Notes under the pieces: model-generated
The model's input: the letters and a program-made list of their open reading frames with translations, nothing else
What the model was told of the DNA's origin: nothing
Database searches by the model: none
DNA from: Deinococcus radiodurans R1 = ATCC 13939 = DSM 20539
GTDB lineage: Bacteria > Deinococcota > Deinococci > Deinococcales > Deinococcaceae
DNA length: 32,000 bases
Direction of reading: 5' to 3'
Assembly: GCF_000008565.1 (NCBI RefSeq)
Contig: NC_001263.1
Span: forward strand, 541,213 to 573,212
Program-made: the position numbers and the translations under genes
Part shown: positions 1 to 23,433 of the stretch, piece by piece
Layout of the letters: every line of letters begins with the position of its first letter
Numbering within the stretch: the stretch's first letter is position 1

Positions 1-226
1 TGCGTTGCACGGGTGACAGGAGCTGAGGCCGCACCGAAAGCGGCGCACGCCGGACAGCAGCGACGACTAGCTCCTGGGCCTTGCGGTACTTCACCTGATC
101 CCAGCCCGCTTGCCCCACCGCCAGAATACCGCCGATGAAAAAAATCAGGACAAAAATCAGGTTCAGCGTCAGGTCACTGAAAGCGATGTAAGGGTTGGTG
201 TCGCCCCGAAGACGCGACGTGCTCAT
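1..226 (-). CDS. MotB/ExbD/ZorB-like stator subunit, N-terminal fragment (gene continues beyond the left edge)
   Basis: Open at the window edge, so absent from the ORF track. The reverse complement of 1-226 reads ATG(226-224) MSTSRLRGDTNPYIAFSDLTLNLIFVLIFFIGGILAVGQAGWDQVKYRKAQELVVAAVRRAPLSVRPQLLSPVQR with no stop. GGAGG (236-232) lies 5 nt upstream of the ATG. A short basic N-terminus is followed by an Asp (FSDL) at the mouth of a single TM helix, which is the MotB-type layout. It starts 24 nt after the stop of the MotA-like gene. Confidence 0.6.
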   Translation of the reverse strand, partial: MSTSRLRGDTNPYIAFSDLTLNLIFVLIFFIGGILAVGQAGWDQVKYRKAQELVVAAVRRAPLSVRPQLLSPVQR

Positions 227-250
227 CCTTCCCTCCAGGCACGGCGGCGC

Positions 251-1486
251 TCAATCCCCACTTTGTACCTCGGCGCGCGAGCGGCTCAGGGCGCGGGACA
301 ATTCGCTGAAGGAGTGATCGAGACGTGCGGCGTAATTGCTCTGCTCGGTGCGGAAGGTCTGGCCCGACTCTTCAAAGCTGTTACTTGCCCGGCCCAGTTG
401 ATCGCCGACACGGGTGATCTGCTTGAGCAGTTCGGACGTGGTGGCCTGCACCGTGTCCTGGAGGCGACTGACCGTCGTCGCTTGCTGAGCGAGGTTCTGC
501 TGCAACTCCGTGCTGCTCGTGCGCAGGGACGAGGCGGCGCTTTCCTGAGCCTGCACCAGGTCCGACACGCCGCGACTCAGGCCCACAGTGAGTTCCTTGA
601 CAGACGTGTCCATCTGCCCGAAAACTTGCTCAATCTGTACACTGGTGTCCGAGAGTTGCGTCAGGCTCTGGCCCAGAGTGTCGCCCGCCTTGCCGAGCAC
701 GCTTTCGAGTTGGACCGCCACGTCTTGCAGCCTCTTGTGAATGTCCTGAAAGCTATTGCCCGCGTCGCGCAGGTAGCGGCCCATGCGCTCCATTTGCGAA
801 GTGATGGCGCGGGGGAAGGTGGCTGGGACAAGTTCGGCGTGTACAAAGGCGTTGAGTTCGTCCTCAAAGGTTTCCTGCGCGCGGGCGGCCAGCGCAAAGG
901 CTACCCCGGTGCCCAGGCTTAGCAGGATGCCCCACAGACTTGCCCCAAACGCCCCCTGCATGACACTCATGGTGCTGGCAAGGGCGTCGGCAAGTTCTCC
1001 CGGCTCTGTGGCCCGCGCGGCGTTGCGGATCGGAGTCACGAGGGTTCCGATTGACCCGGCGAGGCCCATCACCGTGCCCAGCAAACCAGCGAGCATCAGC
1101 AGGTTGGGAATGTTGCGCGCCGACGAGAGGCCAGCTTGTGCGGCGGCGCCCACGGCCTGCGTCGCCGCCTGCAAGTCCGGCGTGGCAAGAGTCCGGGCGC
1201 GGGTCACAGCCACCACCGCTTGCCGCACGGCGCTGGTGGCGGGCAAGGCCTGCGCGGCACGCCAGGCGTCCTCAGCCACTTCGTCGGATTCTGGCGGGTC
1301 CTCGGTGTCTAGGGCAGGCAAGACTACCTGGCGGATTTGTTCTAGAAAGCTCCGTTCCTGTTGGCGCCGCTGACGAGCCACGGCCAGGGCCCGCATGAAG
1401 TAAAGAGTAAGCGGCAACATGACGGCGAGCAGGACCAGCCAGCCTTCGGGCCTCAACTGAAAGAGGGTATTCAGAAATTCACTCAT
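251..1486 (-). CDS. MotA/TolQ/ExbB-family channel subunit with a ~210-aa C-terminal helical/coiled-coil tail (ZorA-like architecture)
   Basis: 411-aa ORF. TM1 is GWLVLLAVMLPLTLYFMRALAV. The hallmark MotA/ExbB core is NIPNLLMLAGLLGTVMGLAGSIG (compare the LGLLGTV.G motif of TolQ/ExbB), followed by ADALASTMSVMQGAFGASLWGILLSLGTGVAFALAA. Residues ~205-411 are Ser/Thr/Gln/Leu-rich with heptad-like periodicity. Only 3 nt separate it from the upstream gene's stop. Confidence 0.8.
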   Translation of the reverse strand: MSEFLNTLFQLRPEGWLVLLAVMLPLTLYFMRALAVARQRRQQERSFLEQIRQVVLPALDTEDPPESDEVAEDAWRAAQALPATSAVRQAVVAVTRARTLATPDLQAATQAVGAAAQAGLSSARNIPNLLMLAGLLGTVMGLAGSIGTLVTPIRNAARATEPGELADALASTMSVMQGAFGASLWGILLSLGTGVAFALAARAQETFEDELNAFVHAELVPATFPRAITSQMERMGRYLRDAGNSFQDIHKRLQDVAVQLESVLGKAGDTLGQSLTQLSDTSVQIEQVFGQMDTSVKELTVGLSRGVSDLVQAQESAASSLRTSSTELQQNLAQQATTVSRLQDTVQATTSELLKQITRVGDQLGRASNSFEESGQTFRTEQSNYAARLDHSFSELSRALSRSRAEVQSGD

Positions 1487-1489
1487 GGT

Positions 1490-4400
1490 TTACCCGAACA
1501 CGCTGTAGCGTTGGCCGAAGGGATGCTCAACGTCATCAGGGTGGTATTCGCACTTCAGGCCCTGGCCGATGACGTCCTCGAAGGTTTCGCCCACTGGGCC
1601 ACCACAGACCCGGCAGTAGTACCCCTGAGTGTTGGCAACGCGGCCTTTGGGCAGCCGTTCTCCCTTGTCCTTGTACAGGCCGTCAATGAGGTTGTTATCG
1701 GGCGGAAATGTCTCCAGCAGGGCCTGTCTCAGGTCAGCATCCTGCGTCAGGTACGCCATCAGGGCCGTCTGGGCTGCCTGATCGCTCCAGTCCCGAACAG
1801 CGCGGGCGCTGCTGCTGCTCATATTGTCGTGTAGCCATTTGACGTAAGCCTGCCTTCCCTCGGCGGGCGTGGGGTAACGGCCCACGATGGCTTTGCGCCG
1901 TGCCTCTATCTCGCTACGCAGGTACGTCGCGGCATTTGTGAGGCTCTTGGAGGGCCGCGAGCTGTCCTGCGGCTCAAAGGCCAGTTGCCGCGCGGCCTTG
2001 CCGAAGCTGCCCGCAAAGCGCCGCGCCCGCTTTTCCGGTTCAGTGGGTTCGCCGGGCTGCTGTGGCCACTCCATGACCAGGTGCCCGCCCGTCAGTTGCA
2101 GGTTGCCGTGGAGAGCTGAAAGGAAGACCAACTGCTCTGCTTCCTGGAGCTTGCGAATTTCCGCGTCGTTGATGGGTGTCCAGTCAATGTCGCTGCGTTT
2201 GCGGGTAAAGTAGGTGTTGAAGCGGGTGGGCTTGCTGTACGACAGTTCACGCACGTCGTCTGCACCGCGCAGAGCAAAGCGGTACCACTCCTCGAGCATC
2301 ACGACGCGGTAAGGATCGATGCCCTCGGTTTCCTTTGCCTCGGGGGACTTGTTCACCCACGGCTGGATAGCGCGGCGGAAGTCGGGAGTCATGTGCATGC
2401 CGACCAGCAGCTTGCGGCGCGGCAAAGGGCTCATGGGGTCCACCTGACCGAGGGGCTCATTGAGCTGCAAGAACAGCTCGGCCTGGGTGGCGGCGTGCAT
2501 GGCCTGACTGTCCGGATCGAAGCTCGGGCTGCGCTGCTCGTAAAGGCGGCGAATCACGTCCTTACCACTGCTGCGTAGGCTGCTCTCGAACGGTTCTACA
2601 GCGGCCTGTTCCAGTGCGTTGAGCTGCGCCCGCTCGAAGTTGTCCTGGCCGACGGCCCAGGCTCCCAGCAACCAGTCGGGGTCGTTGACGCCTGGCAAGA
2701 CGCCCTTGACCAGTGCGTCCCAGGAGCGGATCAGGCGTGCCGCGTGGGCCTCGCGCTGCTTGTCACTGACCGCCAGTTCCTGCTCCTTGTCCACCGAGCC
2801 ATTCGGAGAAGGCTCGAACAAAGACAGACCGTTGACGCTGGCTGAGTCGTTTTCCAGACGGGCACGGGTATCGCGCCAGCGGTCGGCCTGGTTGGTCAGG
2901 CGGCGGCGCAGCATGGTCAGGCGCCGGGTCAGCTTCTCGGCTTCCTCCTCGACGATGCTGAGTGTGCCGGCCTCGGTCTTCTGGCCGCTGCCCCGGTCGG
3001 CAAAGACCTCGCGGACCTTTTGATTGACGCGTGACTTGATCTCGTCGTCCAGAGCGCGGCTTAGGGCGGGATACAGTTGCTGCGACGCCTTGCCTTTCAG
3101 GAAGAACATGCCGAGCAAGGTGTTGGTCCGGATGGTGTCGAGCTCATCCAGCACGCCGTTCGCCGCGCCTGACTTGCCCTCGCTGGGTTCCCAGCCACGC
3201 AGTTCGCCCACGCGGGGCTGCACTCCCTGCATAACCTCCAGCAAGACGTTGGGGCCTTGGTCATAGTCGAGCAGGCGGCTGCTCACTAGGCCGCGCACGT
3301 TCTCCATGACGCGTTCAGCCGCCACGCGGCGGTTGTCGTTAACGGTGCGGTGAACCAGGCCGCGCAGACCCTCGCCGGTGTCCCGGTCAAAGGCACTCCG
3401 CAGGTCTTTCACAGCGTCGCGTGCGCCCTGTACGTTGCCATTACGCACAGCACGCATCACTTCGTTCTTCTTGGCGTCCAGGCTGGCACGGACACTCGCG
3501 CCGGAGGCGTCCAGCAACAGGGATTCGGTCAGGTTAGGGATGGTCAGCCCCATGGTGTCCAGGTCCTCTTCGAGCCGGCCCTCGTACTTGCGGTCTTTCC
3601 AGCGGTCGACGGCGTGCACCAGCGTCCGGTATTTCAGCGCTTCCAGGATGCGCCGCATCGGGTACTCAATGGTGGATAGACCAAAGGTGGAGAAGGCGAA
3701 GGCGCGGCCCTGTTGCACGGTCACGGGGCCAGCGTTCACCATGTAGGCCATCGGGTCGGTCTCCGGCACAAATACGTTCAGGAACATGCGGTCGGCAATG
3801 GCATTGGACAGGCGCAGCAGATCCATCGTCTCCGTACTGTTCGGGCGTAGCAGGTAGACGAGGTCATAGGGCATGGCGTCCCCCGGCAAGATGGCCGTTC
3901 CCTCGGGTTTATCGGGGTACTTGATGCTCTGGTAGCGCTCGCGGTCGTTGTGCAGGTGGTACTGGTTCAGTTCGGCGAGGGCGTGATAGGCGTTCGTTTT
4001 CCAGATTTCCGCGTCGGGTTTTTGGGCGATCCCCAGGTCAGGATGCGGCAGGGTAAACATCCCCAGCGTCTTCTCTTCCTCACTCAGGATGGTGCGCAGC
4101 AAAATGCCTACATCACTGGCGGTGCCGCTACAGGTTCCGCCGCAGAGCGTGCCCACGACGATGACACGGACCCCGGTCTGTCCGCTGGCCTGGTTCACCG
4201 CAAACTGCACGGACATTTCCAGGCCGGCATTGTCCTTGTTGAGTGCGGCTTTGGCCTGCGCTTCAGTCAGGTTCCGCAGCCGTGCCACTCGTTGCGAAAT
4301 GGCATTCTTGATCTCATTGTAGTTGGGCGGATAAAGCAGAGCGAGCCGCCCCACCATACGGATATGACCTGCGCCGGAGTCAATGCTCTGAGCGGGCAAT

Positions 4401-4702
4401 TGCCCCAGCGTTTCCAGGTCTGCCCAGGTGTTCAGGGCGATGCTGGCGTCGTACAGCTCAGGGCGATTGAGCATGTCCCGCCACGCCGTAGCTGGCACCC
4501 CGAGCGTCTTGAAATCGTCCGTGCCGTTGAAACGGTTGGGCTTCGCCACGTCCGTCTCCACCGCCAGAAACTCCACCCACGGGGCGCGGCTGAGGCCTCC
4601 GACTTCCCAATCGATTCGGTCTGCCAGAGATTCCAGAATTTCCGTCCCGGTGCTGCCCAACCCGATGACGAGAGTTTTAAAGACGCGCATGTTTTCTGCC
4701 AT
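1490..4702 (-). CDS. Giant tubulin/FtsZ-superfamily GTPase-like protein (1070 aa) with a long helical C-terminal region and a terminal Cys/His knuckle
   Basis: The N-terminal ~350 aa carry three loops in canonical order. T1-like: LVIGLGSTGTE (res 11-21; FtsZ GxGGGGxN). T3-like: DSGAGHIRMVGR (res 108-119; FtsZ GLGAGxNPxxGR). T4 signature-like: VVGTLCGGTCSGTASD (res 182-197; FtsZ/tubulin GGGTGxG). The C-terminus ends in YYCRVCGGPVG...LKCEYHPDD. The ATG overlaps the upstream TAA (TAATG at 4700-4704). Confidence 0.85.
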   Translation of the reverse strand: MAENMRVFKTLVIGLGSTGTEILESLADRIDWEVGGLSRAPWVEFLAVETDVAKPNRFNGTDDFKTLGVPATAWRDMLNRPELYDASIALNTWADLETLGQLPAQSIDSGAGHIRMVGRLALLYPPNYNEIKNAISQRVARLRNLTEAQAKAALNKDNAGLEMSVQFAVNQASGQTGVRVIVVGTLCGGTCSGTASDVGILLRTILSEEEKTLGMFTLPHPDLGIAQKPDAEIWKTNAYHALAELNQYHLHNDRERYQSIKYPDKPEGTAILPGDAMPYDLVYLLRPNSTETMDLLRLSNAIADRMFLNVFVPETDPMAYMVNAGPVTVQQGRAFAFSTFGLSTIEYPMRRILEALKYRTLVHAVDRWKDRKYEGRLEEDLDTMGLTIPNLTESLLLDASGASVRASLDAKKNEVMRAVRNGNVQGARDAVKDLRSAFDRDTGEGLRGLVHRTVNDNRRVAAERVMENVRGLVSSRLLDYDQGPNVLLEVMQGVQPRVGELRGWEPSEGKSGAANGVLDELDTIRTNTLLGMFFLKGKASQQLYPALSRALDDEIKSRVNQKVREVFADRGSGQKTEAGTLSIVEEEAEKLTRRLTMLRRRLTNQADRWRDTRARLENDSASVNGLSLFEPSPNGSVDKEQELAVSDKQREAHAARLIRSWDALVKGVLPGVNDPDWLLGAWAVGQDNFERAQLNALEQAAVEPFESSLRSSGKDVIRRLYEQRSPSFDPDSQAMHAATQAELFLQLNEPLGQVDPMSPLPRRKLLVGMHMTPDFRRAIQPWVNKSPEAKETEGIDPYRVVMLEEWYRFALRGADDVRELSYSKPTRFNTYFTRKRSDIDWTPINDAEIRKLQEAEQLVFLSALHGNLQLTGGHLVMEWPQQPGEPTEPEKRARRFAGSFGKAARQLAFEPQDSSRPSKSLTNAATYLRSEIEARRKAIVGRYPTPAEGRQAYVKWLHDNMSSSSARAVRDWSDQAAQTALMAYLTQDADLRQALLETFPPDNNLIDGLYKDKGERLPKGRVANTQGYYCRVCGGPVGETFEDVIGQGLKCEYHPDDVEHPFGQRYSVFG

Positions 4703-5031
4703 TAGGCTCGGGCTCCCATTTTTGAGAAGATGACGTGAAGGATGATGGCCAGCAGCAGGAAGGTCAGGGTCACTGCTCCCAGGTAGATCAGGTCGGTCGG
4801 TTTGAAGAGGAAATAAGCTCCGGCTGCCAGCGCTACGGCCAGCAACAGCAGGGCGATGTTCATGCCCTGATTGGCCGCATCAACCGCCGACCGATTGCCC
4901 GCACCGAAAAACACATGCGCGAACGCCACTGAAACCGCGTACCACAGCAGCACGGTGCCCAGAATGGTCAGCCAGAAGTTCATCTGGGTATAGAGAGGAA
5001 CAACTTGCTTGAAAATGTCGTTGAAATCCAT
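4702..5031 (-). CDS. Small 3-TM membrane protein (109 aa), function unknown
   Basis: Three hydrophobic helices: FWLTILGTVLLWYAVSVAFAHVFF, MNIALLLLAVALAAGAYFLF and LIYLGAVTLTFLLLAIILHVIF. The start overlaps the upstream stop (TGATG at 5029-5033) and the stop overlaps the downstream start. Confidence 0.7.
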   Translation of the reverse strand: MDFNDIFKQVVPLYTQMNFWLTILGTVLLWYAVSVAFAHVFFGAGNRSAVDAANQGMNIALLLLAVALAAGAYFLFKPTDLIYLGAVTLTFLLLAIILHVIFSKMGARA

Positions 5032-6350
5032 CAGTGGTCTCCCTGCTGATAAGAAAGGGTGAGAGAGCGTGTGATTTCACGCGGCACGCCGCCCGCGCCG
5101 CGCACCTCGCCGGTCAGTTCAAGTTGATGGTCAGGCTGATCGAGGCGCAGGGGAAAAGAAGCCGCGTTTCCCACCGCCACACGGCCATCGACGCTGCTCA
5201 GCGTGACGGCTTCACTCGTGCCGCGCACCTTAAGGTCCTTGCCGACCCGGACGAGTTCGGCAATCCGTTCGGCTGGAAGGCCCTGCACCGGCACGACCGC
5301 TACCCCTTCCTCGCTGTAGCCAGGGCCAGCAATCACGCAGAAGGGCCTGCCGTTGGGCATATCGCGGAGGCTGAAGTTCGAATCTCCAACGCGCAGGCTG
5401 CCCCGCGCTCCACCTTGCCCGCCGCCCTTGATGAGCATCCAAACCAAGCCTCCGATCAGCCCAAGCCCCAGCAGGCCCAGAAGAAAGGGAGCAGCGGAGC
5501 CGTTCTTCTTTTCTGCTTTGACCGGCTGAGCACTCTGGTCAAGTTGCTGTGTACGGGTGGTGTTGCCCAGAGGAGTGGCCGTAAACGTCTTGGGCAGCAA
5601 CACGACGGCTTGCATCTGCCCCGGTACGGCGCCGCCGGGTGTTTTGATGGTGTAGGGAATATTCAGGGTGGCGCCGTCCTGCGTCCCAGCGACCCGCGTC
5701 CATGTCTCCAGCATCTTCTGATAACTCCCAGCATTGGTGCCGAGCAGCTTCGTACCTGCTGAGCCGACGCTGGCTGCCGTATTGGTCAGCAGAATCAAAA
5801 CGGTATCTGGTGAATTCGCGAATTCCTTCGTGAACGATACAGCGGCCCTTTCCGTATCGTGCCCTCCCGCGCTCCCTACTGCGGGCGTGGTGGGCCACAA
5901 CCGCTCCACACCGCCTTTATCGGCCTGACTGTCTGTGCCGATCTGCTGGGTAAGCCCCTGGGCATTCCTAAACGCCCAGGGCTTGAGTTCCCAGGCGCGT
6001 GCTGTCACCTGGTCGCCGGTCATTGCTTCACGTGCAATGAACTGCGAGGCCACTTCCCGTGCCGCCTGTGCGCCCAGCGGATCAGACTTGAAGTGCCCAG
6101 TGCTGAACGCCATTACCCAATGGACGTTTTGCTTATCCAAGTCGCCGCCCGCCGCTGTGACAGCCTCATTCACACTGCTCAATAAGCGGTCAACTCCTGG
6201 CTTGAGGCTAGAGCGCATCAATTCGGTTTTACCTCTGACATCTTGCGCCTGCACTGTGCTTGAGAGCATCAAGGCCGCTGTCAGCCAACCAATAAGGGGT
6301 AAGTCTGGGCTTCTGAAATGAGGTCTAAGGGAACGTGAAGTTTTGTACAT
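5031..6350 (-). CDS. Bitopic membrane protein: signal peptide, ~290-aa extracytoplasmic domain, one TM helix, ~125-aa cytoplasmic domain; function unknown
   Basis: The ORF extends to 6467. The Met at 6350 gives MYKTSRSLRPHFRSPDLPLIGWLTAALMLSSTVQA/QD, which looks like a signal peptide. Alternative starts are 6395 and 6467. TM helix AAPFLLGLLGLGLIGGLVWMLIKG lies at nt ~5427-5495. It is the first gene of the operon. Confidence 0.7.
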   Translation of the reverse strand: MYKTSRSLRPHFRSPDLPLIGWLTAALMLSSTVQAQDVRGKTELMRSSLKPGVDRLLSSVNEAVTAAGGDLDKQNVHWVMAFSTGHFKSDPLGAQAAREVASQFIAREAMTGDQVTARAWELKPWAFRNAQGLTQQIGTDSQADKGGVERLWPTTPAVGSAGGHDTERAAVSFTKEFANSPDTVLILLTNTAASVGSAGTKLLGTNAGSYQKMLETWTRVAGTQDGATLNIPYTIKTPGGAVPGQMQAVVLLPKTFTATPLGNTTRTQQLDQSAQPVKAEKKNGSAAPFLLGLLGLGLIGGLVWMLIKGGGQGGARGSLRVGDSNFSLRDMPNGRPFCVIAGPGYSEEGVAVVPVQGLPAERIAELVRVGKDLKVRGTSEAVTLSSVDGRVAVGNAASFPLRLDQPDHQLELTGEVRGAGGVPREITRSLTLSYQQGDH

Positions 6351-6419
6351 AAGAATGATGTAACCTCGCTTAACCGAAGCATACGACCTTCTCATGACAC
6401 TGCTGTCACATTGTTGGGC

Positions 6420-6447
6420 TTTATAGGTGGAGGCAAGGGAAAAGTAA
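6420..6447 (-). promoter_or_regulatory. Candidate sigma70-type promoter of the tubulin-like/MotAB-like operon
   Basis: The minus strand reads TTACTT (6447-6442), a 16-nt spacer, then TATAAA (6425-6420). It sits in a locally AT-rich stretch between the DUF72 terminator and the first operon gene. Pattern match only. Confidence 0.3.
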
Positions 6448-6525
6448 GGACCAATGTGACGTTTCACTTGTGGTCCCTAAACAGGGTAGGCTGCCCGCAC
6501 GTGCTGATAGTTCGACTGCTAACTA

Positions 6526-6560
6526 AACGAAAAATCCCTTGCCTGCGGGCGGGGATTTGT
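6526..6560 (-). terminator. Rho-independent terminator downstream of the DUF72 gene
   Basis: The minus strand reads AAATCCCCGCCCGCAGGCAAGGGATTTTTCGTTT. A 7-bp stem (AAATCCC/GGGATTT) is followed by a T-run, immediately after the DUF72 stop at 6561. Confidence 0.6.
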
Positions 6561-7358
6561 TCATTTGGGGTCAGGCTGGCAAGAGGTTTGCCTTTCCGAC
6601 TGTGCTGAACTCAACAAGTTCCGTAAAATCAGCCCGTTTTCTACCGCTGCCCCCACCGCCGTGTTGTCGAAGATGACCCATACGTCGCCAGAATTCGCCT
6701 GCACCTGCGCTGCCAACCTTGCCAGTTGTGAATCCAAGTAGCTGCTGGAATACATCTTCGGTGAGCCGTGCCAGCGGTAATACACCATGCTAAGGCTGCC
6801 GCCAGGGTGCGCGGCGGCGGGCACCTTCGCGGGGTCGGCGGCCACGCGGCTCACGTTCAGGTCGCGCAGCAGGGCGTCCACTTCCGGGGTGAACCAGCTG
6901 GCGTGACGCGGTTCGCACACAGTCCGGGCGAGGGTCATCCCGTGCAGCAAGCTGAAGAAGTCCTCTACAACGTCCCGCTCGAAGCTCAGGCTGGGTGGCA
7001 ACTGCACTAGCAGTGGCCCCAGCTTTTCACCCAGATGGCTGACCTGCTCTACAAACTCGGCCAGCGGCGCGGCGCACTCTCGCAATCTGGCCGTGTGCGT
7101 CACGGCTTTGGGCACCTTGACGCTGAAGCGAAAGCCCTGCTGCACGCTGGCCGCCCAGCGCGCGTAGGTGGCCGGGCGGTGGGGGCGGTAAAACGACGAA
7201 TTGATTTCGGCGGCATTGAAGCGGGTGGCGTAGCGTTGCAGCACGCTGTCGCCTGGGCCGAAGCGCTCCTGCTGCTCGCGGCTCAGGCCCCAGCCTGCCG
7301 TGCCCAGGGCGACATGCTGTGTCTTCTGGTGCTGCGGCGGTTCGAGCAGCTTCATCAC
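6561..7358 (-). CDS. DUF72 (UPF0759/YecE-like) family protein
   Basis: LGTAGWGL...LQRYATRFNAAEINSSFYRPHRPATYARWAASVQQGFRFSVKVPKAVTH matches the characteristic DUF72 N-terminal pattern (GTSGW ... vEiNstFY ... W ... gF.FsvK). Confidence 0.85.
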   Translation of the reverse strand: MMKLLEPPQHQKTQHVALGTAGWGLSREQQERFGPGDSVLQRYATRFNAAEINSSFYRPHRPATYARWAASVQQGFRFSVKVPKAVTHTARLRECAAPLAEFVEQVSHLGEKLGPLLVQLPPSLSFERDVVEDFFSLLHGMTLARTVCEPRHASWFTPEVDALLRDLNVSRVAADPAKVPAAAHPGGSLSMVYYRWHGSPKMYSSSYLDSQLARLAAQVQANSGDVWVIFDNTAVGAAVENGLILRNLLSSAQSERQTSCQPDPK

Positions 7359-8921: not shown

Positions 8922-9689
8922 ATGATTTCGGCGATGATGCTCGCGGTCATTGGCGTGGGACTGCTCGCCGGGGTGCTGGGCGCGATTCTGGGTCTGGGCG
9001 GCGGCGTGGTGGTGGTCCCGGCGCTGGAATTCGTGTTGCCGCGCTTTGGGCATGACATCACCATCAGTCAGGCGGTAGCAGTGTCACAAATCGGCGTGCT
9101 GGCCGTGGGCCTGAGCGGTGCCGCCGCCTACTTGCAGCAGGGTTTGGTTCGCGCTCGCACCGGCTACCTGCTCTCCCCCTACACCATTATTGGCGGGGCA
9201 GTAGGCAGTTTCCTGGGCCTCGTGCTGCCTGCCCGCGCAGTAGCGACCGTGTTCGCGTTACTGCTCTTTTACTCCGCTTACAACCTGTTGCGTGGTCTCA
9301 AGCGGGTCGAGGTCGAACGCGAGCCGTCGAAGTTGGTGCCTCCCGCCATGACTTTCGCGGGCGTCATGAGCGGCCTGCTCGGGATCGGCGGCGGCACGGT
9401 GCAGGTGCCGGTGCTTAACCTGATGCAGGGGATGCCGATCCGGCAGGCCATCGCCACCTCGACCTTCATTATGGGTCTCACCGCCGTAGGGAACGCATTG
9501 GTCTATCAAGCGGGCGGCCTCCTCGATGTGAAACTCGCTGCTGGAGTTGCTCTGGGCGTCCTTATCGGTGCCAAAGCCGGAGCGAGTCTGCAAAGCCGTA
9601 TCCCCGCCGCACAACTCAAGCTCTTTTTCAGCTTGCTGCTGATCTTTACTGCCGGGCAACTCCTCTGGAAGTATTGGGGGCACGCATGA
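8922..9689 (+). CDS. TauE/SafE (TSUP, DUF81) family anion exporter membrane protein
   Basis: Polytopic protein with duplicated halves. The typical [22 protein letters not shown] motif recurs as [19 protein letters not shown] lies upstream of the ATG. Confidence 0.85.
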
Positions 9690-9961
9690 CCGGGCCTGAG
9701 CGCACGCCGGACACCGAACTCGCTGGGCTGCCCAGTTGGCTGTATCCGGCTGGTTTCTGGGTCGCCGTGGTTTTGCTCGCTGTAGGCGTCCTCTTTCCTG
9801 ATTTCGCGGTTTTGGGTGTGGCCTGGGTGGGTCTGGTGCCGGTGCTCGCGGCCCTGTGGGTTTTGGTCACGGGCTGGCAAAGAGACCGCCGCCTGGGGAT
9901 GGCGGCGGCGCTGGCGCTGGCGGGGTTGGGGTTGGTGGTGGTAGTCAAGGGATTTCTCTAA
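9686..9961 (+). CDS. Small hypothetical membrane protein (~91 aa)
   Basis: The ATG at 9686 overlaps the TauE stop (ATGA). There are 2-3 hydrophobic helices ([46 protein letters not shown]) and GC-rich third codon positions. No recognisable family. Confidence 0.5.
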
Positions 9962-10322
9962 AGCCACCCTGATCGTAGGTAAAGGTCTTGCCACTTTGTG
10001 AAAGAGCACTAATGGTATAAGCAGTGCCACTGCTGGTAACCGTAACTTGTGATTGTTTGACCGATGCCGGCTTGCTCTGCGCATTGACACCCAGTGCTGG
10101 ATCCTCACAACTGGTTGGTGGGGGACTTGGCAAAACTCCTAGATCGTCTCGTGAGATTTCAAGCGCTGAGGCGCAATGGCGAAGGTAGGATGTCGTGGCG
10201 CTGTCATAAGCTTTACTTCTGGCGCCCGCGAGGCTAGGTACAAGCACAGAGATGAGAATGGCGATTATCGTCATCACTACGAGAAGCTCGATCAGTGTGA
10301 ATGCCTCAGTGGCCTTTTGCAT
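9945..10322 (-). CDS. Type IV pilin-like protein (paralog of the pilin at 11916-12392) with an atypical Ala at the -1 cleavage position
   Basis: MQKATEA/FTLIELLVVMTIIAILISVLVP is a class III (prepilin) leader plus hydrophobic helix. AAGGAG lies 9 nt upstream of the ATG at 10322; the ORF track extends to 10358. It shares ARxKAxDSATxSYxRxC and KTFxxD motifs with the downstream pilin. Confidence 0.75.
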   Translation of the reverse strand: MQKATEAFTLIELLVVMTIIAILISVLVPSLAGARSKAYDSATTSYLRHCASALEISRDDLGVLPSPPPTSCEDPALGVNAQSKPASVKQSQVTVTSSGTAYTISALSQSGKTFTYDQGGFREIP

Positions 10323-10436
10323 CAAGTGCAGCTCCTTTACCTTGGAACTGTAAAACATCTGTGAGAGAGAATGGGTTTCCCAACGGACTTCCAGAGCTTC
10401 TGTCTTTAGTGAGGCGAGTGACAGTTAAGATTGACG

Positions 10437-11873
10437 ATGATGAGTCTGGCTCAGCAAGATGCGAATACTTTTCGCCTGGCATGGTTTGCCCGGGCCTGGG
10501 CCATAGCGGTCTGGTTACATCTGGCTGCTGAGCCCAGGGGTGCGTGGGCGACGCAACCGCCACTAGCCGTCCTCTCTGTGCTACTAGCCTTGGCAGCGGC
10601 AAGAGCGTTTCTCGCGCCGCGTGATAGACGTGCTGTGCTGGCCTTGTGTGTCTTACTCCCTTTGCATGCCTGGGCTGAGGCACCCGTAGTGGGCAACCAC
10701 TGGGTACTCGCTGCCCTTGTGAGTTTGAGTTTTTGTCTGGACGCAGTTCGCCGTTTTCTTTTGCCTTCTTCCTCCTTCATGCCTGGAGAGCTTGTGCGGA
10801 GTGCCCGGCTGACTCTGCTGATCGCCTATGCGTTCGCCGCATTTGCCAAGCTGAACTGGGATTTCCTGAACCCGGCTGTCAGTTGCGCGGTCTTTTATCA
10901 GGATCAACTTGTTCGGTCCTGGAACCTGCCAGATCTCAGCGTTGCTTCTGTGCCTGTATTGGGCCGGTCCTTGGCTGTATTGACTGTCGTGATTGAGTTG
11001 GCGGTGGCAAGCTTACTAGCATTTTCCCGCACGCGGCGCTTCGGGCTGGTGCTGGCGTTTGGCTTTCACTGGATGCTGGCCCTGGATCTGGAGCAGCACT
11101 TCTGGGACTTTTCCTCTGTCCTATTTGCTGGATTTCTCCTCTTTCTGGACGATGGGCAAGTGGCCTGGCTGCGTCAGCAGTTCGGAGCGTGGCCTAAGTG
11201 GCGACCCAGGCCTTTTTTTCTGCCCCTCCTGATCGGATGCTTGGGTGCGGCAATAGCCGTCCTTAACATCTTGCCGCTGGAGTTGGGCTCCGCCGCCACC
11301 TTGCAGCAATGGGGACATGTGGCTTGGTGGGGCTACGGAACCGCTTGGGTAGGTCTGATAGCAGCCAGCCTGTTTGCTCCCAAATTGCCCTCGCATCGCG
11401 CTTACGAACGGCACCGTGTTCCGGCGATACTCTTGGTGCCGCCCATTTTAGCTGCTTTCAACGGTTTAACTCCGTATCTGGAAATCAAGACAGGTTTCGG
11501 TTGGAACATGTACAGCAATCTCAAGACGGTGGCGGGTCAAACGAATCACCTGCTTTTGCCAGGAACCTGGGATTTAACGGGCGCCCAACGCGAGCTGGTA
11601 CAGATCGTGTCCTCCACCGACCCGGCCTTGCAGCGGCTTCATGACGAGGACTACGGCCTGACCTTCTCCGAATTCAAAAATTATGCCCACCGTTTTCCAA
11701 ACAGTGCCGTGACCTACCGCTGGCAGGAACGGGTTCACCACGCCCCCCGTCTGGGGGACGACCCGGTAGTGCAGGGGTCGGTCAATGTGGCAGCTCAGAA
11801 ACTCATCTCCTTCCGGGCAGTGGACTTGCAGGCGGCGCAGCGTTGCCAGCCGAATTTCAGCCCGGCCCGCTAA
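10437..11873 (+). CDS. Polytopic membrane protein, possibly HTTM (vitamin-K-carboxylase-like) domain family
   Basis: About 10 hydrophobic segments. N-terminal FRLAWFARAWAIAVWLH and GNHWVLAALVSLSF resemble HTTM-domain motifs, but that is a weak assignment from memory. There is a soluble C-terminal ~130 aa. Start could be TTG 10431 or ATG 10437/10440. Confidence 0.65.
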   Translation: MMSLAQQDANTFRLAWFARAWAIAVWLHLAAEPRGAWATQPPLAVLSVLLALAAARAFLAPRDRRAVLALCVLLPLHAWAEAPVVGNHWVLAALVSLSFCLDAVRRFLLPSSSFMPGELVRSARLTLLIAYAFAAFAKLNWDFLNPAVSCAVFYQDQLVRSWNLPDLSVASVPVLGRSLAVLTVVIELAVASLLAFSRTRRFGLVLAFGFHWMLALDLEQHFWDFSSVLFAGFLLFLDDGQVAWLRQQFGAWPKWRPRPFFLPLLIGCLGAAIAVLNILPLELGSAATLQQWGHVAWWGYGTAWVGLIAASLFAPKLPSHRAYERHRVPAILLVPPILAAFNGLTPYLEIKTGFGWNMYSNLKTVAGQTNHLLLPGTWDLTGAQRELVQIVSSTDPALQRLHDEDYGLTFSEFKNYAHRFPNSAVTYRWQERVHHAPRLGDDPVVQGSVNVAAQKLISFRAVDLQAAQRCQPNFSPAR

Positions 11874-11900
11874 AACAAAACCGCCCCGGAGGGCGGTTCT
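11872..11900. terminator. Bidirectional rho-independent terminator between convergent genes
   Basis: AAAACAAAA-CCGCCC-CGGA-GGGCGG-TTCT. A 6-bp GC stem and tetraloop are followed by TTTTGTTTT on the minus strand (strong for the pilin gene) and TTCT on the plus strand. Confidence 0.7.
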
Positions 11901-11915
11901 GAGAAGAGGTGGGGA

Positions 11916-12392
11916 TTAGTTGCTGCCGGTACCAGTGCCGGTGCCAGTGCCGGTACCAGTGCCGGTACCAGTGCCGGTGCCGGTGCTGGTGCTGAAGGTG
12001 CAGGCACCAGTAGCGCCAGTGCCTTCGCCCATCTTCGCGCCGTCGAAGCAGAAGGTCTTGTTGGTCACGCTGGTGGCAGTAACGGCAAACTTGCTACCAG
12101 TACCATCCAGGCTGTAAGCGCCTGCCGCAGTGATTGCACCAGGGGTAGCCACAGCGTTGGTACCCAGGTTGGCCGTGCTGTCGCAGTTGCCAGCAGCAGG
12201 CAGGCGGCCGTCAGCACCACGGGCCACTTCCACGGCGGTGTAGCAGTTGCGGATGTAGCTCTGGGTGGCGCTGTCGTTGGCCTTGGCGCGGGCGCCCAGC
12301 AGGTTGGGGATCAACACGGCGGCCAGGATGCCGATGATGGCGATGACGATGAGCAGTTCGATCAGGGTGAAGCCTTGGGTGGTGTTCTTCAT
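11916..12392 (-). CDS. pilA: Type IVa pilin (158 aa) with a C-terminal (Thr-Gly)10 tail
   Basis: MKNTTQG/FTLIELLIVIAIIGILAAVLIPNLL is a canonical prepilin leader with the G-F cleavage site, Glu5 and a hydrophobic helix. AGGAGA lies 6 nt upstream of the ATG at 12392. The ORF track's 337-aa version is an upstream in-frame read-through. There are two Cys pairs. The terminator is at 11872-11900. Confidence 0.9.
   Translation of the reverse strand: MKNTTQGFTLIELLIVIAIIGILAAVLIPNLLGARAKANDSATQSYIRNCYTAVEVARGADGRLPAAGNCDSTANLGTNAVATPGAITAAGAYSLDGTGSKFAVTATSVTNKTFCFDGAKMGEGTGATGACTFSTSTGTGTGTGTGTGTGTGTGTGSN
11925..11984 (-). repeat. Imperfect 6/12-nt tandem repeat (ACC/ACT GGC/GGT)x10 encoding the (TG)10 pilin tail
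   Basis: Read directly. The minus strand reads ACC GGC ACC GGC ACT GGT ACC GGC ACT GGT ACC GGC ACT GGC ACC GGC ACT GGT ACC GGC, then AGC AAC TAA. Confidence 0.9.
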
Positions 12393-23175: not shown

Positions 23176-23250
<75 letters not shown>

Positions 23251-23253
23251 GAG

Positions 23254-23290
23254 AAACCACTGTCTACGGGCGGTGGTTCTTTTTTGTTTC
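23254..23290 (+). terminator. Possible terminator after tRNA-Ala
   Basis: The AACCAC/GTGGTT stem (23255-23260 and 23273-23278) has a 12-nt loop and is followed by CTTTTTTGTTT. Confidence 0.45.
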
Positions 23291-23324
23291 GGCGGAGACT
23301 TTTGTGTCACAAGACAGCACAGAA

Positions 23325-23356
23325 ATAAAAAGCCCCCGGCGTTCACCGGGGTTTTC
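23325..23356 (-). terminator. Rho-independent terminator after tRNA-Val
   Basis: The minus strand reads CCCCGG-TGAACG-CCGGGG followed by CTTTTTATTT. On the plus strand the stem spans 23334-23351. Confidence 0.6.
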
Positions 23357-23358
23357 TC

Positions 23359-23433
23359 TGGTGGGCGATGAGGGATTTGAACCCCCGACCAATCGCTTGT
23401 AAGGCGAGCGCTCTACCGCTGAGCTAATCGCCC
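23359..23433 (-). tRNA. tRNA-Val (anticodon UAC)
   Basis: The reverse complement is GGGCGATTAGCTCAGCGGTAGAGCGCTCGCCTTACAAGCGATTGGTCGGGGGTTCAAATCCCTCATCGCCCACCA. Acceptor GGGCGAT/ATCGCCC, anticodon loop CTTACAA, T arm GGGGG-TTCAAAT-CCCTC, encoded CCA. There is one C27-U43 mismatch in the anticodon stem. Confidence 0.9.

Follow-up and report, generated by a model that had tools for sequence, protein, structure and literature searches.

What might a bacterium use a protein for that begins like FtsZ or tubulin, continues for a further 690 residues and is encoded among genes for membrane and cell-wall proteins? This question is raised by DR_0538, a gene near one end of a 32,000-nucleotide stretch of the Deinococcus radiodurans R1 genome (NC_001263.1, positions 541,213 to 573,212 of the forward strand), referred to below as the window and providing the numbering used throughout. 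Taking identity and fold together, it is virtually certain that DR_0538 is a founding member of the FtsZ-like 1 (FtsZl1) family, Pfam Tubulin_2, with a tubulin-type N-terminal fold. An open reading frame (ORF) scan and translation place an ORF of 1070 codons at positions 1490..4702 on the minus strand; a first-pass annotation had given the same interval and length, which are correct, although the gene runs on the minus strand. The plus-strand reading of 1490-4702 was discarded because it is riddled with stop codons that interrupt the frame. The product is identical to AAF10122.1 / UniProt Q9RWX7_DEIRA ('Tubulin like') from Deinococcus radiodurans. The ATG of DR_0538 shares bases with the stop codon of the upstream gene (TAATG), and translation starts at M1 or possibly at M5, NCBI also holding a 1066-amino-acid version from Met5. 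All of the strings quoted in the first-pass annotation lie at the residues given for them, namely LVIGLGSTGTE at 11-21, DSGAGHIRMVGR at 108-119 and VVGTLCGGTCSGTASD at 182-197, and the quoted helical run (EEEAEKLTRRL...; EEEAEKLTRRLTMLRRRLTNQADRWRDTRARLE) and the terminal YYCRVCGGPVG...LKCEYHPDD are both present in the translation. Pfam PF13809 (Tubulin_2), the only Pfam family matched by DR_0538, covers residues 11-366 over its full length (model positions 1-356/356) with E = 1.4e-73 and a score of 248.7 bits (cut-off 27), so that, judged by this profile, the resemblance to tubulin/FtsZ is far above the level of a chance motif.

The protein, its family, its architecture and its operon are already known from a publication of 2010 and from Pfam. 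The FtsZl1 family was defined by Makarova & Koonin (Biol Direct 2010; PMC2875224) as proteins of ~1050 amino acids with an FtsZ-like N-terminus and a coiled-coil and helical C-terminus, in which H5 is the last alignable element, T6-H7/T7 and the C-terminal tubulin domain are not identifiable and the GGGTG(S/T)G signature has a counterpart of its own. DR_0538 (1070 amino acids, gi 15805565) is named FtsZl1 in Additional files 1 and 5 of that work and appears as 'Deira' in its Figure 1, and membrane remodelling was the role proposed for the family (PMC2875224). The novelty implied in the first-pass annotation is therefore not borne out, the same architectural points having been published with DR_0538 as a member. 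Santana-Molina et al. 2023 (PMC9871819) mention Tubulin_2 only as left out of their tubulin/FtsZ phylogeny, being too divergent. Literature searches with FtsZl1, PF13809, DR_0538 and DR_0537 found no functional study, and a search with DR_0534 returned it only within a STRING network. Since DR_0538 already stands in the 2010 FtsZl1 tables and no experiments were found in the literature, the observation is a correct, independent rediscovery of a published yet uncharacterised family. FtsZl1 is among the most divergent branches of the tubulin superfamily, and it is one for which our literature searches turned up no experimental work.

The N-terminal tubulin/FtsZ-like GTPase domain (residues 11-366; 3605..4672, minus strand) is delimited by PF13809, by structure prediction and by fold comparison. 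An AlphaFold2 model of residues 1-400, built on an alignment of 69 homologues that are 36-88% identical to DR_0538 over this domain, has a mean predicted local distance difference test score (pLDDT) of 85.9 and a predicted template-modelling score (pTM) of 0.81. When the model was compared with the PDB using Foldseek, 112 chains were retrieved at E <= 0.001, and the top matches all belong to the tubulin superfamily, with probability 1.0. The best structures are CetZ2 (4b45; E = 1e-6), CetZ (3zid), FtsZ from many species, BtubA (2bto) and eukaryotic tubulins; the E values for CetZ, FtsZ, BtubA and tubulin range from 1e-6 to 1e-4 and the target-normalised template-modelling (TM) scores from 0.43 to 0.48. 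A fold search against viral models retrieved phage FtsZ, tubulin and PhuZ. Structure prediction followed by Foldseek had been proposed in the first-pass annotation as a check of its reading, and the fold obtained indeed matches the tubulin/FtsZ superfamily (CetZ, FtsZ, BtubA, tubulin and PhuZ). Identity to the solved structures of the superfamily is 13-16%, and this low identity together with the TM scores is what one would expect if the nucleotide-binding half is common, the inserts are large and the second half differs. Only Pfam and the fold reveal the relationship: searches of PDB chain sequences with the single protein and with a family profile gave only spurious coiled-coil and transposase matches and no tubulin or FtsZ. 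An hhalign comparison of the family with E. coli FtsZ aligned only the S1-H1-S2 stretch with a probability of 1% and without statistical support, and is thus of no use for locating T7.

The glycine-rich loops that define the superfamily are present as variants with invariant Gly, Thr and Ser residues (GLGSTG for T1 and GGTCSG for T4). The T1-like loop, G14-L-G16-S-T-G19-T (4643..4663, minus strand), has G14, G16 and G19 invariant among the 69 homologues; the T3-like loop, D108-SGAGHIRMVGR119 (4346..4381, minus strand), has G110, G112, I114, R115, M116, G118 and R119 invariant; and the T4 or tubulin-signature-like loop, G184-TLCGGTCSG193 (4124..4153, minus strand), has G184, L186, G188, G189, T190, S192 and G193 invariant. 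E49-T50, at the T2 position, is nearly invariant in the same set. The assignment of T1, T3 and T4 made in the first-pass annotation is upheld by this invariance, by the match to Tubulin_2 and by the tubulin-type predicted fold. Because the loop Gly, Thr and Ser residues are invariant across homologues that are only 36-88% identical, the loops argue for retained nucleotide binding by DR_0538.

The second half of the canonical GTPase appears to be missing. Beyond strand S6 (281-285) the model continues with helices 292-311, 317-324 and 349-369, and no S7-S10 sheet follows S6 in the model of residues 1-400, from which we conclude that the canonical C-terminal activation domain is absent. FtsZ_C and Tubulin_C are not matched by DR_0538 in Pfam, and the NxDxxD/E T7 motif was not found in the protein. 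The earlier remark that the T7 loop could not be located by eye agrees with these results: no T7 loop can be assigned, and the activation domain is missing from the model. Conservation does single out a loop, F337-STFGLSTIEY-P348 (3659..3694, minus strand), followed by helix 349-369, in which F337, G341 and P348 are invariant and position 346 is Glu in 96% and Asp in 4% of the 69 homologues. With E346, this loop is a candidate T7/H8 equivalent by inference from its conservation; residues 341-348, which overlap it, are the sole stretch of the model with pLDDT < 50. Should DR_0538 form filaments, these cannot be canonical and would need a contact other than the insertion of T7 into the nucleotide pocket.

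The last 690 residues are confidently folded yet unmatched among solved structures, which makes them a lead for follow-up. The AlphaFold2 model of residues 381-1070 has a pLDDT of 91 and a pTM of 0.64 and consists of helical and alpha/beta domains; Foldseek found nothing in the PDB at E < 0.001. The first-pass annotation had left this sequence unassigned, and it is indeed without a solved structural relative. In the model, a middle helical region (residues ~381-750; 2453..3562, minus strand), likewise with no PDB fold match at E < 0.001, is followed by C-terminal mixed alpha/beta and helical domains (~751-1020; 1643..2452, minus strand) with strands at ~762-768, 789-793, 801-806 and 868-897 and helices at 846-865 and 924-1009. 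R799, R834, D838 and W841 are invariant in the C-terminal alignment. The description of residues ~380-1020 as helical holds for the packed helices and fails for the beta-containing sub-domains at ~760-900. Similarly, the run described as coiled-coil-like does lie in the longest helices, 536-567 (32 residues) and 580-618 (39 residues), which are, however, far shorter than one continuous coiled coil.

A putative zinc site lies at the C-terminus (1514..1624, minus strand). Conservation and the model outline a beta-hairpin knuckle, C1030-x2-C1033, a helix, C1051 and H1060, with predicted strands at 1027-1029 and 1036-1038 followed by helix 1041-1046; the predicted knuckle has no fold match in the PDB. 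Only nine alignment columns are invariant over the C-terminal 690 residues, and C1030, C1051 and H1060 account for three of them; the conservation of C1033 reaches at least 90%. Among 114 full-length homologues, the second ligand position holds Cys in 95 cases and Asp in 13. The Cys/His knuckle proposed in the first-pass annotation stands as far as its Cys residues are concerned, as these are conserved; its His was H1054, whereas the conserved His is H1060, which lies in 'HPFG'. A His at Cys+3, the H1054 position, occurs in only 21/108 homologues, and a His within 3-9 residues is universal. On this pattern of conservation, a metal site at the C-terminus of DR_0538 is plausible, and the conserved site, with H1060 as its His, is a second lead for follow-up.

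With what would such a protein work? DR_0538 lies in the cluster DR_0540, DR_0539, DR_0538, DR_0537, DR_0536, DR_0535, DR_0534, whose members in the window are all on the minus strand. Between consecutive window genes, start and stop codons either overlap or are separated by no more than 25 nt, a spacing of 4 nt also being seen, and, judging by the overlapping codons, DR_0538 is co-transcribed with its neighbours; a promoter and terminator scan of positions 1-7000 found nothing above shuffled expectation. DR_0537 (251..1486, minus strand; 411 amino acids) has the layout of a MotA/ExbB/TolQ-type three-helix channel subunit with an additional helical C-terminal tail of ~210 amino acids. Its three hydrophobic helices carry the pattern LLGTVxGL ... 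GAFGASLWGILLSL, its homologues are annotated 'MotA/TolQ/ExbB proton channel family protein', and PF01618 (MotA_ExbB) is matched by 11/19 members of its family (best E = 6.2e-5). When the DR_0537 family profile was compared with the PDB, the result was dominated by helical bundles and spike proteins that matched the tail. The 5' part of DR_0536 occupies 1..226 (minus strand) and continues past the window edge, the whole gene of 201 amino acids being located at 14477-15082 of contig L001. In its product, an N-terminal transmembrane helix precedes a peptidoglycan-binding domain of the OmpA type (PF00691, E = 1.4e-20); the helix contains P12 and D18, both invariant in 28 orthologues. A conserved transmembrane Asp is the hallmark of MotB/ExbD/TolR/ZorB-type subunits. 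DR_0535 is a leucine-rich-repeat-variant (LRV) protein (Pfam E = 5e-57) and DR_0534 is a Ser/Thr kinase (Pkinase, E = 9e-18); in Deinococcus, genes of both types are part of the cluster. The OmpA-family and kinase partners typical of FtsZl1 operons are thus confirmed in the DR_0538 cluster. The 2010 supplement lists DR_0540 (478 amino acids, hypothetical), DR_0539 (109, hypothetical), DR_0537 (411, MotA/TolQ/ExbB membrane protein), DR_0536 (201, OmpA family), DR_0535 (825, labelled 'LLR') and DR_0534 (700, Ser/Thr kinase) (PMC2875224); our lengths match these except for alternative starts in the contig gene calls, which give 395 amino acids for DR_0540 and 692 for DR_0534.

The two remaining members lie upstream of DR_0538. 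DR_0539 (4702..5031, minus strand), an ORF of 109 amino acids that is translationally coupled to DR_0538, has three hydrophobic membrane helices predicted by eye. DR_0540 (5031..6467, minus strand) has a longest ORF of 478 amino acids and is called as 395 amino acids by the gene caller. The shorter call omits an N-terminal hydrophobic, signal-peptide-like segment (LIGWLTAALMLSSTVQA), which is contained in the longer ORF and whose position is conserved in homologues; the actual start is probably located between those of the two versions. Read by eye, the longer version of DR_0540 has an N-terminus that resembles a signal peptide; an extracytoplasmic domain, a single transmembrane helix and a cytoplasmic tail rich in beta structure follow. 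Neither Pfam on 22 members nor a PDB profile search matched it to a family. An assignment as a vWA protein, suggested by a likeness seen by eye (AFSTGH / GGHDTE / LLTNxAAS), was rejected because Pfam, the PDB profile and hhalign against the vWA protein from the Thermus FtsZl1 locus were all negative.

The conservation of this arrangement was examined in 61 related loci from species genomes and the source contig L001, covering Deinococcota, Armatimonadota, Actinomycetota, Hydrogenedentota, Myxococcota, Poribacteria and Verrucomicrobiota. A DR_0540-like gene adjoins upstream in 37 of the 54 loci with sufficient sequence, and a DR_0539-like gene lies upstream of the tubulin-like gene in 16 loci. 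Downstream, the 44 loci with sufficient sequence include 22 with an adjacent MotA-like gene and 24 with an adjacent OmpA-like one. The length of the MotA-like subunit differs between loci (411 to 900 amino acids) while its transmembrane core is conserved, which marks the cytoplasmic helical tail as the variable part. The family is small, with 1149 cluster representatives out of 1.84 billion at E <= 1e-3 and only 113 at E <= 1e-30; the full-length representatives almost all have 1000-1130 amino acids, and full-length homologues of DR_0538 span 1040-1130. Orthologues are found on megaplasmids of D. deserti, D. actinosclerus, Deinococcus sp. QL22 and D. radiophilus, and the plasmid copies bring the same membrane operon along. 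On the D. radiophilus plasmid NZ_CP086382.1 (96078-100362) the tubulin-like orthologue is split by an IS630-family transposase, so that the cluster is dispensable in that strain at least. Deinococcus also contains a second, paralogous cluster type (loci L018, L021 and L023), ~40% identical in the tubulin-like domain, in which the kinase gene directly follows the OmpA-like gene; L018 and L023 also have an LRV-repeat gene upstream, encoded on the other strand. The Thermus oshimai plasmid pTHEOS01 (L064, 2730-12381) carries a distant FtsZl1 gene that belongs to the vWA-associated type, with a TROVE-domain gene two genes upstream and a gene for the BREX Lon-like protease brxL two genes downstream. 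In D. radiodurans itself, directly downstream of DR_0534 and past window position 1, contig L001 20155-23213 contains an ORF of 276 amino acids without assignment, an HTH_17 (excisionase-like) gene, an ORF of 206 amino acids and a Prim-Pol/DUF3987 primase, and has the appearance of a mobile element that integrated next to the FtsZl1 cluster.

Of the roles considered for DR_0538, the likeliest is that it acts in the cytoplasm, under regulation by GTP, as the partner of a stator that is driven by protons and anchored in the cell wall. DR_0537 and DR_0536 would build this stator, of the 5:2 type exemplified by MotAB, ExbBD and ZorAB, and the DR_0537 tail would be cytoplasmic, as in the topology of ExbB, TolQ and ZorA. 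DR_0538 would bind GTP and serve as the cytoplasmic working part of an envelope-spanning machine, its helical or zinc-binding part being engaged by the tail. A GTP-dependent self-association or conformational switch may then be tied to the condition of the envelope, with the kinase exerting control, and the output could be either the membrane remodelling suggested in 2010 or a surveillance of the envelope. As a whole, this explanation (FtsZl1 identity, fold, operon and an envelope machine) is considered to be probable; the stator-coupling mechanism for DR_0538 with DR_0537 and DR_0536 is put forward more tentatively, its chances being somewhat below even. Unlikely, in our estimation, is the specific version in which DR_0538 is the output of a MotAB/ZorAB-type 5:2 motor and movement of the DR_0537 tail on envelope damage or invasion, gated by DR_0534, controls GTP-dependent assembly. 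If this version holds, it would provide the first case of a tubulin-superfamily protein that is coupled to an ion-driven stator, and the cluster might also be a new Zorya-like immune or envelope-surveillance system. The resemblance of the Deinococcus-type partners to a stator that is anchored to peptidoglycan, driven by protons and equipped with a helical tail in the cytoplasm is a further lead, and one that has been testable since the Zorya structures.

Several observations weigh against the stator proposal. DR_0537 alone scores only 13.7 bits against PF01618 (E = 0.053; threshold 22.9), and its score of 18.6 bits against NCBIfam antiphage_ZorA_2 compares with a cut-off of 100, the ZorA matches being far sub-threshold. 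A detectable adjacent MotA-like gene is missing in about half of the loci with sufficient sequence, and the coupling may therefore be specific to a subfamily. Many FtsZl1 operons instead encode vWA proteins and P-loop GTPases (PMC2875224), and the literature search found no phenotype reported for DR_0538 or DR_0537.

The alternative that survives best, although it is unlikely, retains the stator and gives it another purpose: a Zorya-like anti-phage or anti-invader defence, in which the MotAB-like complex would sense envelope perturbation, its tails would signal and the tubulin-like protein would be the effector or scaffold. DR_0537 has a ZorA-type layout, with a three-helix channel and a long helical tail, and weak matches to ZorA (PADLOC E = 8.4e-5, tail only; antiphage_ZorA_2 E = 7.8e-4); the range of 411-900 amino acids in the MotA-like subunit implies a variable tail. 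Other features would suit an accessory system, such as the patchy distribution (the 1149 cluster representatives among 1.84 billion), the orthologues on megaplasmids of four Deinococcus species, and flanks that are not conserved within the genus: the D. radiodurans flanking genes do not adjoin the operon in other Deinococcus species. The HTH_17/Prim-Pol-DUF3987 element lies just downstream in D. radiodurans. When 126 flanking ORFs from 26 related loci were scanned, some matched Shango SngB/C, BrxD, Cas6b/Cas3c, PycTIR and a type II restriction endonuclease, and brxL lies two genes downstream of the distant Thermus FtsZl1 gene. However, such defence matches are few among mostly housekeeping genes (e.g. 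SecA, EF-Tu, GrpE, TsaD and DnaB), and since the scan had no control set it provides no evidence for a defence island. PADLOC, candidate systems included, matches none of DR_0538, DR_0539 and DR_0540, and PADLOC and NCBIfam together gave no defence-system assignment for the cluster, the ZorA scores lying far under the curated cut-offs. No nuclease, NADase or other usual effector was found in the cluster by Pfam scans, and literature searches found nothing tying Tubulin_2 to defence.

Rather less probable is that DR_0538 is a catalytically inert pseudo-GTPase scaffold with a purely structural role within the membrane complex. No T7-type catalytic loop or activation domain is assignable and the signature reads GGTCSG rather than GGGTG(S/T)G, as would suit such a scaffold; yet the T1, T3 and T4 Gly and Thr/Ser residues are invariant despite 36-88% identity and E49-T50 is nearly so, and such conservation of the loops is hard to explain without nucleotide binding, which disfavours an inert protein. 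A classical cytomotive filament acting in division (FtsZ-like) or in DNA segregation (TubZ/PhuZ-like), although in keeping with the tubulin/FtsZ N-terminal fold and nucleotide loops and with the plasmid location of some orthologues, is most improbable, as DR_0538 lacks FtsZ_C and Tubulin_C domains as well as a T7 motif, is ~3 times the size of FtsZ, TubZ or PhuZ, has membrane and cell-wall proteins as partners rather than TubR/TubY-type DNA-binding proteins or division genes, has no homologue in 50,697 phage records and belongs to a family whose genomes typically encode a conventional FtsZ as well (PMC2875224). The view in the first-pass annotation that this is not a canonical division or plasmid-segregation tubulin accordingly agrees with both architecture and gene context, which contradict such roles.

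The remaining window is ordinary chromosome, with genes for DUF72, GDPD, TauE, pilins, DnaB, NUDIX, an aminotransferase, a TrpRS/TyrRS-class synthetase, NFACT and two tRNAs. Positions 9000-12000, and especially 10001-11000, stand out by a G+C content of 0.54-0.59 (elsewhere 0.62-0.72) and an AT skew of -0.21 to -0.28; this low-G+C stretch contains a gene of 359 amino acids without a Pfam family (~10794-11873, plus strand) beside PilA4-type pilin genes. At 23176-23433, tRNA-Ala(TGC) on the plus strand and tRNA-Val(TAC) on the minus strand converge ~110 nt apart, flanked by genes for a class I tRNA synthetase and for a protein of the NFACT family.

Compared with known systems, DR_0538 shares with CetZ, FtsZ, BtubA and tubulin the strand-helix order and glycine-rich loops at the T1, T3 and T4 positions; it differs in having large inserts between T1 and T4 and in lacking the C-terminal GTPase-activating domain and the NxDxxD/E T7 motif. 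TubZ and PhuZ are, like DR_0538, divergent prokaryotic members of the superfamily. They are proteins of 300-450 amino acids that polymerise by canonical longitudinal contacts and act with DNA adaptors, whereas DR_0538 has neither adaptor genes nearby nor phage homologues and is found instead in a membrane and cell-wall context. The neighbours of DR_0538 resemble ZorAB, MotAB, ExbBD and TolQR: DR_0537 has a probable three-helix core of the MotA/ExbB type, as in the A subunits, and DR_0536 has, as a B subunit would, a single transmembrane helix with a conserved Asp and an OmpA-like peptidoglycan-binding domain. ZorA also shares the long helical C-terminal tail of DR_0537, which is shorter in D. 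radiodurans (~210 amino acids). In contrast to Zorya, DR_0537 falls below every curated ZorA threshold and the DR_0538 cluster contains no ZorC/D/E-like genes; nor did the literature searches find any stator system described with a tubulin-fold GTPase partner such as DR_0538. From the published FtsZl1 family DR_0538 does not differ in kind. The Deinococcus-type operon carries DR_0540 at the place of the vWA gene of many FtsZl1 operons, and the present analysis adds to the family description a confident predicted structure with a search for similar folds, the Cys/His site conserved at the C-terminus, the recognition that most of the 'coiled coil' is predicted to be packed helices and alpha/beta structure, and the MotB-like invariant Asp of DR_0536.

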